64,000 nucleotides of DNA from an uncultured Arcobacteraceae bacterium (GCA_964022095.1 CAXHZO010000002.1:192001-256000); one strand, 5' to 3'; numbered from the stretch's first letter, positions 16,181 through 39,546 are shown. Notes: generated by a model not told the origin, from the sequence alone. Numbers and translations are program-made.

Positions 16181-17341
16181 TTAAAATTGAAATTTTTTAT
16201 TTAATTTGAAGAAATATAATACAGTTTTATATTGAACAAATATAAACGGTAACATTAAAGCAAAATAAGCAATAGAATATTTAGTTATAATTCCATTAAA
16301 TGTAAGTCCAAAGTTAATAAAAAACATTCCTAAAACCATAAAAGCAACACCTGGACAAATAAGTGCAAATGATATAGAAGATCTATCTTCAGAGTGAATA
16401 TATTTATCAAAATAACCAATGCTTTTCATGATTTTGTATCCAAGTAGTCCAAATAATATCTGTAAAGATAATATTGCTGATAATGTAATAAATAGATTTG
16501 TTTTTTGTATAGGGTCTTGGAAGTTATGATCTAATCCAAATGATAATCTTACAAATGTTATACCTAATAGTGTTAAAATAGGTATTATAATCCATAATGA
16601 AGGTGATGCTTCTATTGATATACCATTTTTAAATATACTTTTAATTCCAATAGTTAATTTAATAAATATTAATAAAATTGCTAATGAAGCAAAAAATATT
16701 GACCCAAAAAATGCAATGGCATTAATTACAATATTGTGACTCATCGCTGCAGGTGCTGCAAATCCAACTGCAACCATTGAAAAAGCGAAGATTGACATCA
16801 TTTGTGATAAGTTGTTATTTGTAGCAAAATCAAAATCACCTTTAATAATAAGTCTTGAAAAGTAATCAGAAAATATTTTTAAAGCAAAATACCCAGTTAC
16901 AATAAATCCAATAAGTGCAAATGGAAATAAAAATTGAACAATTCCCCATAATCCTGGAATAAATACAGCACCTAAAACAAAACAAACATTAATAGTCATT
17001 GTAAAAGTTAATGGAATAGCCATTAAACTTACCTGTGCATTTGAATTTTTCAAGTTTTCATATTCAACTGTTTTTTTATATTGATTAAACTGTTTTATAT
17101 TGAAAATTAATAGTTTAAAATGAAAAAATGCAAATGTTATTATAAATACAAGTGAAAAAGCAATTACATAAGATAACCAATCACCTTTTAATAGTGCTGG
17201 TAAAATTATATCAAACGTTGGCATCGGTGTTTTTGGATGAGGAACTAGGAACATTAAATACATAAAAAATGAAACACTTAATCCTCCTGCACCTAATGAA
17301 GCTAAGAAGCACATTGGTGAAAAGTTTTTTCTATAAGTCAT
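16181..17341 (-). CDS. tsoY: TsoY family multi-pass membrane protein (Cys form)
   Basis: N-terminal SPMCFLASLGAGGLSVSFFMYLMF, NNLSQ and FALICPGVA; about 10 TM helices. Confidence 0.7.
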   Translation of the reverse strand: MTYRKNFSPMCFLASLGAGGLSVSFFMYLMFLVPHPKTPMPTFDIILPALLKGDWLSYVIAFSLVFIITFAFFHFKLLIFNIKQFNQYKKTVEYENLKNSNAQVSLMAIPLTFTMTINVCFVLGAVFIPGLWGIVQFLFPFALIGFIVTGYFALKIFSDYFSRLIIKGDFDFATNNNLSQMMSIFAFSMVAVGFAAPAAMSHNIVINAIAFFGSIFFASLAILLIFIKLTIGIKSIFKNGISIEASPSLWIIIPILTLLGITFVRLSFGLDHNFQDPIQKTNLFITLSAILSLQILFGLLGYKIMKSIGYFDKYIHSEDRSSISFALICPGVAFMVLGMFFINFGLTFNGIITKYSIAYFALMLPFIFVQYKTVLYFFKLNKKFQF

Positions 17342-18385: not shown

Positions 18386-18661
18386 TTATTTGGCAATTTT
18401 ATCTGCAATAGCTTGCATAGTTGCTTCATCCATATTTTTAACTTGATTAATCATTAAAACTTTTTTTGCTCCACCATAAGTTCCATCTTTATAACCTTTT
18501 AATGCAGAAACAAATTGTTCTTTTGTTAATGTATTAATTGCAACTGGTGACATTCCTACTTTTTCACCTGCTGGACCATGACATGCTATACATTTACCAT
18601 AAGGGTTTGCAAATGCAACACAAGCTGTTAATAATGAAGTAGCTAAAATTATTTTTTTCAT
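18386..18661 (-). CDS. Monoheme cytochrome c553-like
   Basis: Signal peptide, CIACH, YKDGTYGG, distal Met. Confidence 0.92.
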   Translation of the reverse strand: MKKIILATSLLTACVAFANPYGKCIACHGPAGEKVGMSPVAINTLTKEQFVSALKGYKDGTYGGAKKVLMINQVKNMDEATMQAIADKIAK

Positions 18662-18756
18662 TTTTGATTTCCTTTTTATGAAATAGAATACACAATTTTA
18701 TAATAAAAAAGTTAAAATAATATTGATGTGGGTCAAATAAAGAGAAGTTATTCTCT

Positions 18757-20328
18757 TTATTTTGTAGTGATTTCTCTTTTTAATTCTTCTTTATTTATTC
18801 TATTTTTATCAGAAGGTATCAAAGGAAGTGATTTTTTATATACGATTTTAGAAGGGATCATATATGAAGCTAAATGCTTTTTTAATTCAAATAATATTTC
18901 ACTAGAGTTAAGTTCCGATAGTGCAGTATAAACTAAAACTATCTCTTCTTCAATCTCTTCATTTTCAATTGAGAATACTGCACATCTTTCAATTTGCTCA
19001 ATATTTGAATGTACAACTTCTTCAATTTCATATGGATTTACTCTAAATCCTCTTGTTTTAATCATATCATCATGTCTTGATACAAAGAAGAAATATCCCT
19101 CTTCATCTTTATAAACATAATCTCCAGTTTTTACAACAACTTCATCTCTTAGTTGTCCTTCAAGGTTGATTACATTTTTTAAAATATCAATTGACTTAAA
19201 TCTCTCTTGAGTCTCTTTAGGTGCATTCCAAAAACCTTTATAGATATAGCCACCTCTGTGAATTAACTCACCTACAACTCTAGGAGCACATTCCTTTCCA
19301 TTTTCATCTATTACATATAGTTCTACATCAGGAATTGCTTTTCCAATTGATTTTGGTCTAATTTTTAATTGTTCAGGATCTAAATAAGTTGATCTAAATG
19401 CTTCAGTTAAACCATGCATTGAATAAAATTTTGCACCTGTAAAGTATTTTTGTGTATCATCAATCATTTTTTGAGTTACATTTCCACCTGAAGAAGTTAT
19501 GGTTCTCACATTTTTAAGAAGTTCACTACTTGGTAATCTATGTTCATCTTCATCAAACATATCAGATATATTAATAGGCATTATAGGTAATACTGTAATA
19601 TTATCATTTATAATATGATTAAAGAAATCATTTGGTAAAACAAATCTATGAAGAGCTAAAGTTGCTCTTTTATAAAGGGAACAGAAAATTTGATTTAAAC
19701 CATAGTCTAAGTTAAAAATCAAAAGACCAGAAATTACATCTTCTTCTTTTAGCTCTAAATATTGAGATACAACTCTTGCACTGTCAATTAAATTTCTATG
19801 AGAAATTACAATTCCTTTTGGTTTTCCACTAAGTCCAAATGAGTAAGTAATAACTGCATTATCATGTCCATTTACATCACAAGAGTAGGGCTTATTATAA
19901 TATTTGTATATCTCTTCAAATGATGGCAAGTCTTTATGTGTAGTTTCATAAGATACTAAATGACCATCAAATTTAATCTCTTCGATTGATTCTATTTTGA
20001 TCTTATCAGTAATAATACACTTAATATCACAATCTTCAATTATATACTCAACTTGTTCTGGTTTTAGTAGTTTTGTTAGTGGCACTAATACATAATTCGT
20101 TGAAAGTATTGCTAAAATTGCAATTACTTGATCAACACATTTATTAGAGTAAATACCAATTCTACTACCACTTGGCAAATCAAGCTCATCTAAATAATAA
20201 GCAATTTGATTTACTTTAGTAAACAGTTCACTATAAGTTAATTTTTCATTCCCAAATACTAACGCAACTTTGTCTGGGTGCGATACATTTGCATCTTCTA
20301 TTAATGTTCTAATACAATTTATTGACAT
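18757..20328 (-). CDS. AMP-forming ligase (ANL superfamily; resembles exosortase A-associated acyl-CoA ligase family)
   Basis: GKPKG, GLTEAFRSTYL, SIGKAIP, GELIHRG, TGD, DDMIKTRGFRV. Confidence 0.85.
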   Translation of the reverse strand: MSINCIRTLIEDANVSHPDKVALVFGNEKLTYSELFTKVNQIAYYLDELDLPSGSRIGIYSNKCVDQVIAILAILSTNYVLVPLTKLLKPEQVEYIIEDCDIKCIITDKIKIESIEEIKFDGHLVSYETTHKDLPSFEEIYKYYNKPYSCDVNGHDNAVITYSFGLSGKPKGIVISHRNLIDSARVVSQYLELKEEDVISGLLIFNLDYGLNQIFCSLYKRATLALHRFVLPNDFFNHIINDNITVLPIMPINISDMFDEDEHRLPSSELLKNVRTITSSGGNVTQKMIDDTQKYFTGAKFYSMHGLTEAFRSTYLDPEQLKIRPKSIGKAIPDVELYVIDENGKECAPRVVGELIHRGGYIYKGFWNAPKETQERFKSIDILKNVINLEGQLRDEVVVKTGDYVYKDEEGYFFFVSRHDDMIKTRGFRVNPYEIEEVVHSNIEQIERCAVFSIENEEIEEEIVLVYTALSELNSSEILFELKKHLASYMIPSKIVYKKSLPLIPSDKNRINKEELKREITTK

Positions 20329-20338
20329 ATTATTCCCT

Positions 20339-21526
20339 TTATTGTTGTGTTATACCTAAAGTCCAAATATCATAATTTGAATCTAAGATAATTGATGGAT
20401 AAACATCTGAAGTTAAAATCTTTTTGTAGAAGAATGAGATAATATCTTCAGTTTCTTCAAAACTAAGTACTTTTGTTATTCCACCTGTTAATACTATTGA
20501 TTTTAGTAAATTTAACTTTAATTTTATATATAAAGGATGAGCTTCACTAACTTTATATAATACTAAGAAAATAGCAAGTTGCATTAATATTCTAGTTGCT
20601 TTTGGTGATTCTTCTTCAAAAATATTCTCTGTAACTTTTAGATGAGCTAATAGTTCATAAACAAACTCATTGTTTTTTGCTGCAAAGATTAATGATTCTT
20701 TAGATTTAAAAACTCCTAGTTTTTTAAATACTAATCTATCATATTCATTTTCAGTCACCATATTATTATCAATTGCTAAGTCTTTAGAGTAGTGAATATC
20801 AGTAGTAGCTCCACCAATATCAATTAGAATAAATGGATTAACTGCCGCAAACTTACTATCAATAAGAGGTAGTGTTTTATTTACAATATATGGAGTTGAG
20901 TATATTTGATTTGAAGTTAGTTCATATAAGTGTTTGATATCTTCTTTACCCATAATATCAGCTTGATAAAGATTAGTTAAGTAATCTTTTAAAGGCTCTT
21001 CAACTACATGAAGTTTATTATCAATAATATTATCAACAACACTTAAATTATCAATTTTTCCTTTTAAGTAATCTTCATCTTTAGATGAACCTGCAAATAC
21101 AATATTTGAGTAGTTTAAATTATCTAAGAAATTAAATAGTTTTTCATCAAATACATCACTAACACTATCAATACCACCAGCAATAATAACTACATCAATT
21201 AAATCACTAGGAATTGAAGCACTATTTATATCTTGATATAAAATAGTATTAATAATATTAATTCCAGAGTTATAAGCAATATTTGTTGCATATTTAAGTG
21301 AAAAAGAGTTTGTAACTCCAATAATAAGTGTTGTTAATCCACCATTTGCAGAAGAACAAATATATACATCTTCTTTTTCAAATTTTGAAATAGTGTCTCC
21401 ACATTTTGAAGTTAAATCTTCAAAGATATCTTTATTAAAATCTCTAAAGTGTTGCTCAACATTTCCATTTGCACAAACTTTAAAGTATGTACTTCCTACA
21501 TCTACTAATAGTTTATTCTCTATCAT
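20339..21526 (-). CDS. glmL: Glutamate mutase reactivase GlmL/MutL-like (actin-like ATPase fold)
   Basis: VDVGSTYFK, CSSANGGL, IDIGGATTDIH. Confidence 0.85.
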   Translation of the reverse strand: MIENKLLVDVGSTYFKVCANGNVEQHFRDFNKDIFEDLTSKCGDTISKFEKEDVYICSSANGGLTTLIIGVTNSFSLKYATNIAYNSGINIINTILYQDINSASIPSDLIDVVIIAGGIDSVSDVFDEKLFNFLDNLNYSNIVFAGSSKDEDYLKGKIDNLSVVDNIIDNKLHVVEEPLKDYLTNLYQADIMGKEDIKHLYELTSNQIYSTPYIVNKTLPLIDSKFAAVNPFILIDIGGATTDIHYSKDLAIDNNMVTENEYDRLVFKKLGVFKSKESLIFAAKNNEFVYELLAHLKVTENIFEEESPKATRILMQLAIFLVLYKVSEAHPLYIKLKLNLLKSIVLTGGITKVLSFEETEDIISFFYKKILTSDVYPSIILDSNYDIWTLGITQQ

Positions 21527-22887
21527 TGCATAATTCCTATATCATGAATAATATCATTTACGATTGATGAAGCATCTTTATTTAAGTCACATTGAGATTT
21601 CTCATACTTAAAACATCTATCACTTATTGGTAAATTACCTTTTTTGATGATTCTAATGTTTTTGTTTTTATCTCTAACTGTTACTACTTCATTGTGGTTG
21701 ATAATATGAGGAGAGTATGGACAGTCAATTATTCCTGATTTTATAGAGTTAAATACTTTTCTCCACAATGTATCAGCTTTATCATTGAATACAGCACTCA
21801 TAATACTCATAACTTCTTGAGTTAAAATTTCTTCTTCCATCTCATCTGTAATATCAGGAATCCCTTGAAGCATTCTAAGTGTATATTGAGTGTTTGCAAC
21901 TGTTTTTGCATTTGATTCTCTTGTTGGAATACCAAATGCTTCATCTCTAGTTTTTGTAATGATTTTGTCAGCTTTAACCATTGATGCAATTATTGTTGCA
22001 GTGTTAATTAGTGACTCAGAAAAATCTTTATTTGCAGGGAATGCTCCCATCCACTGATGATATACTAAGTGAATATCTGCATCAGCACAGTTGATTTGTT
22101 CTGCATAATGACGTGCTAGTTTTCTTAAAACTTTTGCTGTAACAATATCTTGAATCATTGATCCAGTTTGTGAAAATGATACAGAGAAAGATTTTACTCC
22201 CTCTTCAAGTGATAATAACATTTCACAAAGTTGAATGACAATAGTAACACAAGGTGGAACAAGTGTTGCAGTTAAAGGACCAAATGATTCTCTATTGATT
22301 GGTTCATTAAGTTTTGAGTAGTTTGCACAAACTCTCTCTACATATTTCCAATATAAAAATGCTTTATCAAGTGGAAAGTTTTTAGAGTATGGTAAAAGGT
22401 AAGTAATTGGACCACCTTCAATTTCAAAGATACCAGAAGCAATAGCAGTTTCAACTAATAGTCTTGCATCAGGAGTACCATGTCTTAATGATATTGGTTT
22501 ATTAAAGTTAGTCATCATTTTTCTAGTAGTTCTATATCCATGGTTAACTAGTGGATAACCATTTAACATATCTACATCATTTTCTTCACTAAGCTTAAGC
22601 ATCTTTGCTGCACTTGTATAGTCATTTAATCTTGTATTTGAATCAACTGTACAAGGTAAAACATCAACATCTGCATCAACGAAAAATTCGTAAAGTGAAA
22701 ACATCTTTTTATAAGTTGGGAATCCACCTCTTGGTTGAACCAACATTTTGTTTTTTGTTTTGAAATTGTGAGAAATAAATAAATCTTTTGAAGCGCCTTT
22801 TACGAACTCTTCAATCTCTGCAAAATCAAAATTATCTGCATATTTATTTTGAACGATTATATTTCGTTCTTCTTGAAGTAAACTCAA
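21523..22887 (-). CDS. glmE: Glutamate (methylaspartate) mutase E subunit
   Basis: QPRGG, DSNTRLN, LNGYPLVNHG, RHGTPDAR, EGGPITY, INRESFGPLT. Confidence 0.92.
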   Translation of the reverse strand: MSLLQEERNIIVQNKYADNFDFAEIEEFVKGASKDLFISHNFKTKNKMLVQPRGGFPTYKKMFSLYEFFVDADVDVLPCTVDSNTRLNDYTSAAKMLKLSEENDVDMLNGYPLVNHGYRTTRKMMTNFNKPISLRHGTPDARLLVETAIASGIFEIEGGPITYLLPYSKNFPLDKAFLYWKYVERVCANYSKLNEPINRESFGPLTATLVPPCVTIVIQLCEMLLSLEEGVKSFSVSFSQTGSMIQDIVTAKVLRKLARHYAEQINCADADIHLVYHQWMGAFPANKDFSESLINTATIIASMVKADKIITKTRDEAFGIPTRESNAKTVANTQYTLRMLQGIPDITDEMEEEILTQEVMSIMSAVFNDKADTLWRKVFNSIKSGIIDCPYSPHIINHNEVVTVRDKNKNIRIIKKGNLPISDRCFKYEKSQCDLNKDASSIVNDIIHDIGIMQ

Positions 22888-23291
22888 TTTCTCTCCTCCA
22901 AGTATTTTTCTAATTCATTTAGTCCTGTATTTAAATCTACTTGGTGAAATACTAAATCAAAACCATAGTTTTTAAATCTTGGTACGATTTCATCAGCATT
23001 TCCTTCACCAACGGCTAAGTTTCCACCTAGCATAAATACAACATCTTTTAAGTTTTTATATTTTGATTTTAGAATATTTAATTCTCTACACCAACCTTCG
23101 GCTTCCCCGTTAAGTGATGAGATTAACAGCACATCTGCATTTGTTTCAATTACAGCGTCTATAAACTCTTCTAAATAAGTGTTAACACCTAAATTAAATA
23201 CTTCAAATCCTCTTGCTTGTAGTGATATATCAATTAGTCTATTTGCAACTACATGAATATCATTACCAACTACTCCAGTAACTACTTTCAT
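22884..23291 (-). CDS. Glutamate mutase S subunit (B12-binding)
   Basis: GVVGNDIHVVANR (DxH), VFNLG, ISSLNG, LGGNL. Confidence 0.92.
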   Translation of the reverse strand: MKVVTGVVGNDIHVVANRLIDISLQARGFEVFNLGVNTYLEEFIDAVIETNADVLLISSLNGEAEGWCRELNILKSKYKNLKDVVFMLGGNLAVGEGNADEIVPRFKNYGFDLVFHQVDLNTGLNELEKYLEERN

Positions 23292-23408
23292 ATCTTTTAC
23301 CTAAATATTTATAATTTTTTTTATTGAAAAGTCAGCGATAATATCTAATTTTCGGTTAGAAAAAGATTAGAATTGAGGGTTTTAAGAGGTTTTAGAGATT
23401 TTCTAAGA

Positions 23409-24776
23409 CTAAATAGTCTTAGAAAATCTTCTTTTTTCTTCAGGAATTCTATTTAAATATGCATCAAATGGCATACAAATATTTCTAATAAGCATAGAAC
23501 CAGTTTGATTTACTTCAATTTTATCATCACTTAATGTTAAAAGTTCAGCTTCTTCGAACTCTTTTAAAGCTTCTAATGCATCACAGAAGTATTCTTTAAA
23601 GTTTACATTAAATTGTTCTTCAACTCTTGTGATGTTCAGTGAGAAATTACTCATAAGTTCCATGATAACAAATTGTCTTAATTGGTCATCATCACTTAGT
23701 CTGTACCCTTTAAATGTTGGTAAATTACCATTATCAATAGCATCTTCCCAAGGTTTTAAATCTTTGAAGTTTTGGGCATAGTAATCAACTCCATTACCAA
23801 TAGAAGTAAGACCAATTCCTATTAAATCAGCTCCACCTTTGGTAGTATAACCTTGGAAGTTTCTATGTAGTTCACCTTTTTTAATTGCTTTAAATAGTTC
23901 ATCTTGAGGTTTTGCAAAATGATCCATTCCTACCATTTCATAACCATTTGATGTAAAGAAATCAATTGTATCTTTTAACATCTCAAGTTTTTCTTGAGGT
24001 TGAGGAAATGTTGTTTCATCAAACTTTCTCATTGTTTTCATAAGCCATGGAACATGAGCATAGTTAAATACTGCAAATCTATCAGTATCTAGTGTAATCA
24101 TTTTTTCTAAAGTCTTTTTAAATGATTCTTTAGTTTGATGTGGTAATCCATAAATTAAGTCCGTATTAATAGAGTGAATTCCAGCTTCTCTAGCTATTTT
24201 AATTACATTTTGAGTTAATTCAAATGGTTGAATTCTATGAATAGTTTTTTGAACAGTCTCATCTAAGTCTTGAACACCAAAACTTAGTCTATTACATCCA
24301 CCTTTTTTAAGAACATCCATGTGTTCTTTAGTGAAAAATCTAGGATCAACTTCACACGAAATTTCAGCATCATCGCTAAAGTTTGGAAAAATTTCTTTTA
24401 TTGCTACAATTACTTCATTTAATTGTTCTGGTGAAAAAAATGTTGGAGTTCCTCCACCAAAGTGCATTTGAGTAACTGTTCTTTGAGTATTAAGATGTTG
24501 TTTTAATATATTTAGCTCTTTTTTTAAATACTCTATATATCTTACTTTTTTATCTTCTTTAGAAGTAAAGATTGTATTACATCCACAAAAATAACAAGCA
24601 CTTCTACAAAATGGCATATGTATATAAAGTGATATTGCCCTATCATCACTTTGATTTTTATAGTAATCTTTTAAATCTTCTTGTGTGAATTGTTCACTAA
24701 ATTCAGGTGCTGTAGGATATGAAGTATATCTTGGACCTGGTTTAGAATATTTTACAAATTTATTAAAGTCAATCAT
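23409..24776 (-). CDS. hemN: Oxygen-independent coproporphyrinogen III oxidase
   Basis: [32 protein letters not shown]. Confidence 0.96.
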
Positions 24777-39281: not shown

Positions 39282-39358
39282 TGGAGCTGATGAAGGGAGT
39301 CGAACCCCCGACCTGCTGATTACAAATCAGCTGCTCTAGCCAACTGAGCTACATCAGC
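39282..39358 (-). tRNA. tRNA-Thr (TGT)
   Basis: GCTGATG acceptor stem, loop TTTGTAA, TTCGA, CCA end. Confidence 0.95.
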
Positions 39359-39380
39359 ATCCAAAATTGAAAAAGTGTTA

Positions 39381-39457
39381 TGGTGTCAAGAGAGAGACTT
39401 GAACTCTCGACCTCCGGCTTATGAGACCAGCGCTCTAGCCAGCTGAGCTACCTTGAC
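39381..39457 (-). tRNA. tRNA with CAT anticodon (elongator Met; Ile2 not excluded)
   Basis: GTCAAGG...CTCATAA...TTCAAG...ACCA. Confidence 0.9.
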
Positions 39458-39469
39458 ATCCTGACTAAT

Positions 39470-39546
<77 letters not shown>

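Follow-up and report, generated by a model that had tools for sequence, protein, structure and literature searches.

A four-gene glutamate mutase cassette with a stand-alone adenylating ligase in Arcobacteraceae: a candidate system for the biosynthetic use of 3-methylaspartate

The cassette and its closest described relatives

Most often, glutamate mutase is regarded as a fermentation enzyme of anaerobes or as a part of antibiotic pathways in actinomycetes. The clostridial fermentation operon has the gene order glmS-glmL-glmE-mal. In the vicenistatin system, VinH and VinI form the glutamate mutase, VinL is an acyl carrier protein (ACP), and VinO is a pyridoxal phosphate (PLP) decarboxylase; the mutase feeds 3-methylaspartate to the stand-alone adenylating enzyme VinN. 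We analyzed a window of 64,000 nucleotides from an uncultured Arcobacteraceae bacterium (GCA_964022095.1, CAXHZO010000002.1:192001-256000), in which a cassette of four genes paired a glutamate mutase-like enzyme with an adenylating ligase of its own. Judging from the sequences, we lean towards the reading that 3-methylaspartate is formed by this cassette and then activated to serve biosynthesis, not fermentation.

The cassette consisted of four consecutive open reading frames (ORFs) on the minus strand. The glmS-like gene (22884..23291) encoded a B12-binding subunit of 135 aa, the glmE-like gene (21523..22887, TTG start) a catalytic subunit of 454 aa, and the glmL/mutL-like gene (20339..21526) an ASKHA-type accessory protein of 395 aa. 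The fourth gene (18757..20328) encoded a stand-alone adenylating ligase of 523 aa with a VinN-like pocket. S and E overlapped by 4 nt, E and L also overlapped by 4 nt, and a gap of 10 nt separated L from the ligase. These coordinates agreed with the tight glmS-glmE-glmL-ligase operon proposed in the first-pass annotation, which had been made from the sequence of the window.

Compared with the clostridial operon, for which GlmES structures have been solved (1ccw, 1i9c, 6h9e), the S and E subunits were homologous, the substrate, adenosyl, and His-on residues were kept, and an L-type gene was present. The cassette differed in its S-E-L order and in having a ligase in place of the lyase, with no methylaspartase. 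Relative to the clostridial proteins, E was ~30 residues shorter and L ~65 residues shorter, and both scored below their equivalog cutoffs. The cassette resembled the vicenistatin enzymes in that a glutamate mutase would feed 3-methylaspartate to a stand-alone adenylating enzyme. It differed from them by its GlmL-like gene, by a Phe in place of VinN K330, and by its hosts, as it was carried by Campylobacterota and marine Gammaproteobacteria rather than by actinomycetes. The cassette is not a member of the vicenistatin system, since it lacks the carrier, the decarboxylase, and the assembly line.

A third comparison was given by the top NCBIfam match of the ligase, TIGR03098 (exosortase A-associated ligase, 423 bits). 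We take this family to be described as a ligase encoded beside a PLP decarboxylase (TIGR03099), which suggests a similar amino-acid activation logic. All three motifs on which the first-pass annotation had based a likeness to this family (GLTEAFRSTYL, SIGKAIP, and GELIHRG) were present. The likeness held as the best family match, but the score missed the cutoff of 592.35, and no TIGR03099-type decarboxylase was adjacent. No paper treating the S-E-L-ligase cassette was found in the literature searched, in which coverage of subscription journals was mostly lacking.

Mutase active site, ligase pocket and linkage

The S subunit scored 165.9 bits on NF002612 (methylaspartate mutase S, cutoff 110) and 49 bits on PF02310. 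Aligned to MutS 1be1_A, it kept Asp11-x-His13 and the SSL and GG motifs, and the Gly of DxHxxG was replaced by Ala. D11, H13, and A16 were invariant in 76 of 76 clade members.

The E subunit scored 384 bits on PF06368 (cutoff 26.6) and 273 bits against the solved GlmE chain 6h9e_B, and its value on TIGR01503 (368.5 bits) was slightly below the equivalog cutoff of 390.1. Most family representatives were ~27-36% identical to it along its length. R53, R86, R135, H136, and E157 aligned to the identical residues R66, R100, R149, H150, and E171 of 6h9e_B. The QPR, TR, RHG, and EGG motifs, which had been read earlier as arginine-claw and Glu motifs, thereby fell on R66, R100, R149/H150, and E171, respectively. 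Y163, Y167, K312, and E316 aligned to Y177, Y181, K326, and E330, again with identical residues. We take R66, R100, R149, E171, Y177, and Y181 of GlmE to be the substrate-binding 'arginine claw' with its Glu and Tyr residues, and K326 and E330 are presumably the adenosyl contacts. All nine aligned residues were invariant in 79 of 79 clade members and in the E protein of a sister clade described below. GlmE was present as a single copy in the genome to which the window belongs (2.57 Mb, 31 contigs, 99.99% complete; here the own genome). S and E together look like a genuine glutamate mutase of the EC 5.4.99.1 type.

The L protein matched PF13941 (MutL) with 100.6 bits (cutoff 27) and reached 80 bits on the GlmL equivalog NF040745, against a cutoff of 475. 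A sequence search of the PDB with L gave no match. Its AlphaFold2 model had a predicted local distance difference test (pLDDT) value of 83.2, and Foldseek matched it to ASKHA-fold kinases and ATPases at a low template modeling (TM) score of ~0.3. The model fits the MutL family and gives no added information on function.

The ligase matched PF00501 with 207 bits and also PF13193, and its P-loop, TGD, and hinge motifs were readable. The second-ranked NCBIfam matches, after TIGR03098, were acyl-CoA ligases. The best solved relatives were adenylation domains (A-domains) of nonribosomal peptide synthetases (NRPS), with LgrA at 220 bits, followed by TycA, GrsA, and others; VinN (3wvn) scored 126 bits against the full ligase. 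An ESM Atlas search with the ligase returned generic AMP-binding clusters only. HMMER alignments placed ligase D208 on the FD Asp (A4 motif) of both LgrA A-domains. For A-domain code position 301 the two LgrA domains disagreed, giving Ser or Gly, and the VinN alignment gave Ser.

When the pocket region (ligase residues 196-330) was searched against the PDB at E ≤ 0.001, VinN (3wv4/3wv5) was the sole match. This match was weak (23 bits, E 8.5e-4) and ungapped through the pocket motifs. According to a published review, (2S,3S)-3-methylaspartate is recognized by VinN as a β-amino acid via D230, F231, S299, K330, and R331, and recognition also rests on a β13-β14 loop that is one residue shorter (PMC11253843). 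After a 16-residue chain offset was subtracted to obtain VinN numbering, ligase D208, Y209, S280, F311, and R312 stood at the positions of D230, F231, S299, K330, and R331, respectively. Four of the five recognition residues named in that review (PMC11253843) thus agreed in kind (D, aromatic, S, and R), and K330 was replaced by Phe. The weak alignment showed no gap across the region of the β13-β14 loop, as this loop is described there.

Ligase D208, Y209, N212, S279, S280, M304, R312, and S313 were invariant in 66 of 66 clade ligases and in both sister ligases (2/2); the pocket is fixed wherever the ligase accompanies the mutase. The ligase resembles enzymes that adenylate amino acids, has a VinN-like pocket, and is closer to A-domains than to fatty-acid ligases. 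This tells against the fatty-acid preference that the first-pass annotation had named as damaging to its proposal. 3-Methylaspartate is the likely substrate; we grade it no higher because the VinN match is weak and K330 differs.

The linkage of the four genes was followed in 80 related loci, the best 80 of 438 stretches that encoded a relative in a scan of species-representative genomes. All four genes were found in 67 loci (64 by ORF clustering and L044, L064, and L079 by tblastn), and the other 13 loci ended within the cassette at contig ends. No locus with room missed a gene, so that mutase and ligase were linked in 67 of 67. Since linkage was conserved, a mal gene was missing (see below), and the pocket was VinN-like, the vicenistatin analogy is now better founded than it was in the first-pass annotation. 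The checks that this annotation had set for its own refutation (a mal gene elsewhere, a ligase of fatty-acid type, and a linkage that is not conserved) all came out in its favor, as judged from the sequences.

Identity to the window proteins was high across phyla. Median values against the Campylobacterota loci and the other loci were 86% and 75% for S, 81.5% and 80.8% for E, 74% and 71% for L, and 78% and 74% for the ligase, respectively. Carriers included Arcobacteraceae, Sulfurimonas, Sulfurovum, Colwelliaceae, Oceanospirillaceae, Cellvibrionales, a Vibrio, and others. Within an even sample of the family, E was present in 108 of 151 Arcobacteraceae genomes and in 18 of 22 genera. The nearest other clusters in a representative library at 50% identity were 53%, 48%, and 40-43% identical, and these were rare metagenome sequences.

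A quick tree of E and ligase placed 36 Campylobacterota rows and the window in one clade (Shimodaira-Hasegawa-like approximate likelihood ratio test, 95), nested among gammaproteobacterial rows. This suggests one old inter-phylum transfer with slow evolution afterwards. The direction of transfer is unsure, because the tree is rooted by a single outgroup branch of great length. A metagenome-assembled genome of Cryomorphaceae with a Bacteroidota label (L077) carried a full set of gammaproteobacterial type, with AspC-like, RraA-like, S, E, L, and ligase genes. It branched among Gammaproteobacteria, which would reflect a binning mistake or else a transfer.

Product fate and competing readings

In the reading that we prefer, GlmS and GlmE would act as a glutamate mutase of the adenosylcobalamin (AdoCbl) type and convert L-glutamate to (2S,3S)-3-methylaspartate, and the GlmL-like ASKHA protein would probably serve as an ATP-dependent chaperone or reactivase of the mutase. 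The ligase would adenylate 3-methylaspartate, probably in the manner of VinN, as a β-amino acid and at the C4 carboxyl. The acyl group would then be passed to an acceptor encoded outside the cassette. If this is true, glutamate would have a widespread marine B12-dependent biosynthetic use, with a bearing on cobalamin need, and a new 3-methylaspartate-containing metabolite or glycan decoration awaits discovery.

A view of a possible acceptor came from the sister clade, which was collected by searching metagenomes with P0121, the closest outgroup protein. The search gave four relatives at 45-51% identity, and the contig of P0121 itself was not among them. In sister loci L086-L088 the gene order was S-E-L-ACP-α/β-hydrolase-ligase-AAC(3)-family N-acyltransferase, with the L088 contig stopping after the hydrolase. 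Neighboring genes encoded PseG (214.7 bits, above cutoff), NeuB, a fusion of a cytidine monophosphate (CMP)-transferase and an aminotransferase, GNATs, and a flippase. The sister carrier protein matched PF00550 with 24.6 bits in L087 and had DltC/AmcB-like NCBIfam matches. The four sister-clade proteins homologous to those of the window were 46% (E), 45% (S), 31% (L), and 41% (ligase) identical to them. The ligase pocket residues were identical in both clades, and the two sister ligases scored 525 and 468 bits on TIGR03098, also below the cutoff of 592.

The plain reading of these clusters is that a rearranged amino acid would be loaded on the carrier and then placed onto a pseudaminic-acid-type amino sugar. 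The acceptor in the sister clade would evidently be the small carrier, and the AAC(3)-like N-acyltransferase or the α/β-hydrolase would decorate the sugar. Clusters with both a carrier and an N-acyltransferase fit incorporation into an envelope component. The sister clade differed from the window clade in its own carrier, hydrolase, and N-acyltransferase and in its sugar-cluster setting, none of which adjoined the window-clade cassette. With the sister-clade carrier and transferase missing there, the acceptor in the window clade may therefore be coenzyme A (CoA), a housekeeping ACP, or an amine. Linkage, pocket, and sister clusters together support the proposal of the first-pass annotation that 3-methylaspartate, or a related acid, would be activated for incorporation into a metabolite or envelope component.

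Partners of the cassette were looked for in the own genome and in the related loci. The C-terminal domain of methylaspartase, MAAL_C (PF07476), had no match in the window, as had been claimed earlier, and none in the whole 99.99%-complete genome; no methylaspartate ammonia-lyase was found in the 80 related loci. Neither polyketide synthase (PKS) nor NRPS genes were found near the cassette or in the own genome, and no related locus had a carrier gene after the ligase.

The own genome also contained a flagellin glycosylation island (L100, G000:C4:57001-77000). It encoded NeuB, three CMP-transferase-like proteins, a Maf glycosyltransferase, and a sulfotransferase, and further held an ATP-grasp L-amino-acid ligase, a DegT aminotransferase, several methyltransferases, and a fourth RraA-like gene. 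Three ORFs of 282 aa followed the island genes on the opposite strand. If an amino-acid decoration is made, this island may be where it is put to use.

Genes for cobalamin supply were looked for as well. No cobalamin riboswitch was found in the own genome, and its only B12-binding domains were in a MetH-sized ORF and in GlmS. Neither a PduO-type nor a CobA/BtuR-type adenosyltransferase was found there (EutT-type not searched for), and the best BtuB-like receptor, at 268 bits, was under its cutoff. Across the 151 Arcobacteraceae genomes the CobA type was absent (0/151), and the PduO type was found in two, both times as a marginal match inside an ORF of ~685 aa. Neither of the two Sulfurimonas carriers examined had the CobA or PduO type, and all three gammaproteobacterial carriers examined (3/3) had the CobA type. 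Campylobacterota carriers would thus depend either on the import of intact adenosylcobalamin or on an unrecognised adenosyltransferase. If the preferred reading is true, the question arises of how lineages without a known adenosyltransferase provide an AdoCbl enzyme with its cofactor.

Several observations weigh against activation of 3-methylaspartate for biosynthesis. The sister ACP, hydrolase, and N-acyltransferase had no homolog in the own genome (tblastn, E ≤ 1e-3). From the partners that the vicenistatin analogy calls for, no dedicated ACP was found and only one phosphopantetheine (PP)-binding gene was present, and the best VinO/TIGR03099-type decarboxylase match (228.6 bits) was below the cutoff of 478 and located away from the cassette. 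The pocket match to VinN was weak, and F311 took the place of its K330. Slow evolution and near-core status in the family are unusual for a surface decoration. The mutase was present in 108 of 151 family genomes without a clear known adenosyltransferase (EutT-type not searched for), which leaves the cofactor source unaccounted for. Finally, an RraA-like neighbor in 64 of the 80 loci and an extra AspC-like neighbor in 24 loci are left unexplained.

These two neighbors are the basis of a different reading, which corresponds to the old 'glutamate mutase pathway' idea. Glutamate (net 2-oxoglutarate) would be converted to 3-methylaspartate, the AspC-like enzyme would give 3-methyloxaloacetate, and the RraA-like protein would decarboxylate this to 2-oxobutyrate, from which isoleucine or propionyl-CoA could be made, with a side or regulatory role for the ligase. 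Gene neighborhoods lend it some support. Among the 44 Campylobacterota loci, 34 had the RraA-like gene (159 aa) divergently beside glmS, as did 30 of the 36 other loci. All five gammaproteobacterial genomes checked had a higher-scoring RraA-like gene (138-165 bits) elsewhere, and the cassette-adjacent gene is therefore an extra paralog. It was intact in four of the five and fragmented in G153. An AspC/TyrB-type aminotransferase gene, ~80% identical between orders, adjoined the cassette in 24 gammaproteobacterial loci, and four of five genomes had further copies elsewhere. The catalytic residues of the 4-hydroxy-4-methyl-2-oxoglutarate/4-carboxy-4-hydroxy-2-oxoadipate (HMG/CHA) aldolase are Arg-123 and Asp-124, and the RraA-like protein keeps the equivalent Arg-Asp pair (PMC5065237).

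We nevertheless regard the 2-oxobutyrate route as unlikely. It is not needed in the own genome, where threonine dehydratase (IlvA) scored 502.8 bits against a cutoff of 378.75. No homolog of the gammaproteobacterial AspC-type aminotransferase was found there by tblastn, and the RraA-like ortholog lay ~141 kb from the cassette, at the head of a minus-strand operon ending in OvoA, as in other Arcobacteraceae. The route also gives no task to the ligase, which was linked in every locus with room and has an amino-acid pocket. A gap in the isoleucine pathway as the driver was ruled out, as IlvA is present. Citramalate synthase in the own genome was below its cutoff.

Some further details were seen around the RraA-like gene. 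In G153, the genome of L042 (Colwellia maritima), the gene occurred as two short fragments (C3:210389-210774), and the four cassette genes were intact. The RraA-like/OvoA operon of the own genome (G000:C2:351679-357010, ~95-101 kb past the window end) also encodes two proteins, of 181 and 754 aa, that belong to no known family; OvoA is 5-histidylcysteine sulfoxide synthase. The RraA-like/OvoA block adjoined glmS directly in many Arcobacteraceae and in a Sulfurovum.

We hold it very unlikely that the mutase rearranges something other than free glutamate, for example a glutamate analogue, and that the ligase activates the resulting acid. Such a shift would agree with the position of E slightly below its TIGR01503 cutoff, with the score of L far below the GlmL cutoff, and with the low identity of E to most family representatives, but the aligned glutamate-binding set (three Arg, His, Glu, and two Tyr) was invariant in 79 of 79. 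Least probable of all is glutamate catabolism by the classical methylaspartate pathway with a non-orthologous lyase and with the ligase joining CoA to mesaconate or a related acid: GlmE has the active-site residues of the fermentative enzyme, ANL enzymes often form CoA thioesters, and acyl-CoA ligases were the second-ranked family matches, but the own genome gave no MAAL_C match (mesaconase and citramalate lyase were not searched for), the ligase has the amino-group-binding Asp and finds its closest relatives in amino-acid A-domains and VinN, and the sister clade pairs it with a carrier protein in sugar clusters.

Activation of 3-methylaspartate for biosynthesis can also be extended to a bolder proposal, which we consider doubtful. 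The cassette might make an unrecognised B12-dependent small molecule that derives from 3-methylaspartate and is widespread among marine Arcobacteraceae, Sulfurimonas, and several gammaproteobacterial orders. The VinN-like ligase might then work without a carrier and form this molecule directly, as an amide or a CoA thioester, or even as a β-lactam if the ring of the β-amino acyl-adenylate closes. The Campylobacterota mutase, lacking a known adenosyltransferase, might depend on an unrecognised way of making or loading AdoCbl, perhaps via the short GlmL-like protein, or on strict AdoCbl import.

Surroundings of the cassette

Upstream of the cassette, argF and hemN lay on the same strand. A perfect inverted repeat with a 16-bp stem (23395..23430) was found at the hemN stop, ~100 nt upstream of glmS, with no strand assigned. 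It is a candidate for a hemN transcript boundary or for an operator. We leave its role between these two options because the T-run after the repeat was on the plus strand only. Neither a riboswitch nor another RNA element was found near the operon, and seven related loci had none either.

Directly after the ligase stop, a short stem-loop with a 6-bp stem and a T-rich tail (18741..18756, minus strand) was seen on reading the sequence, and it is a possible weak terminator. The inverted-repeat scan passed over it because it has fewer than three G-C pairs. The gene after the ligase was variable among the related loci, with no conserved follower across phyla.

Family scans of the window downstream of the ligase identified a cytochrome c, a GGDEF protein, a TsoY-family protein, and an NlpC/P60 protein. 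The cytochrome c (18386-18661, minus strand), just after the ligase, had 91 aa, a signal peptide, and a CxxCH motif; among Arcobacteraceae loci it occurred as one, two, or three tandem copies. The TsoY-family (seleno)protein gene (16181-17341, minus strand) scored 514.5 bits on NF047644. Another 22 loci kept it downstream of the cassette, together with the GGDEF gene and the YkfC-like NlpC/P60 endopeptidase gene.

The G+C content in the window was 24-35%, and the best matches of its proteins were to Arcobacter, Malaciobacter, and Poseidonibacter. Three tRNA genes stood in tandem on the minus strand at 39285-39546.

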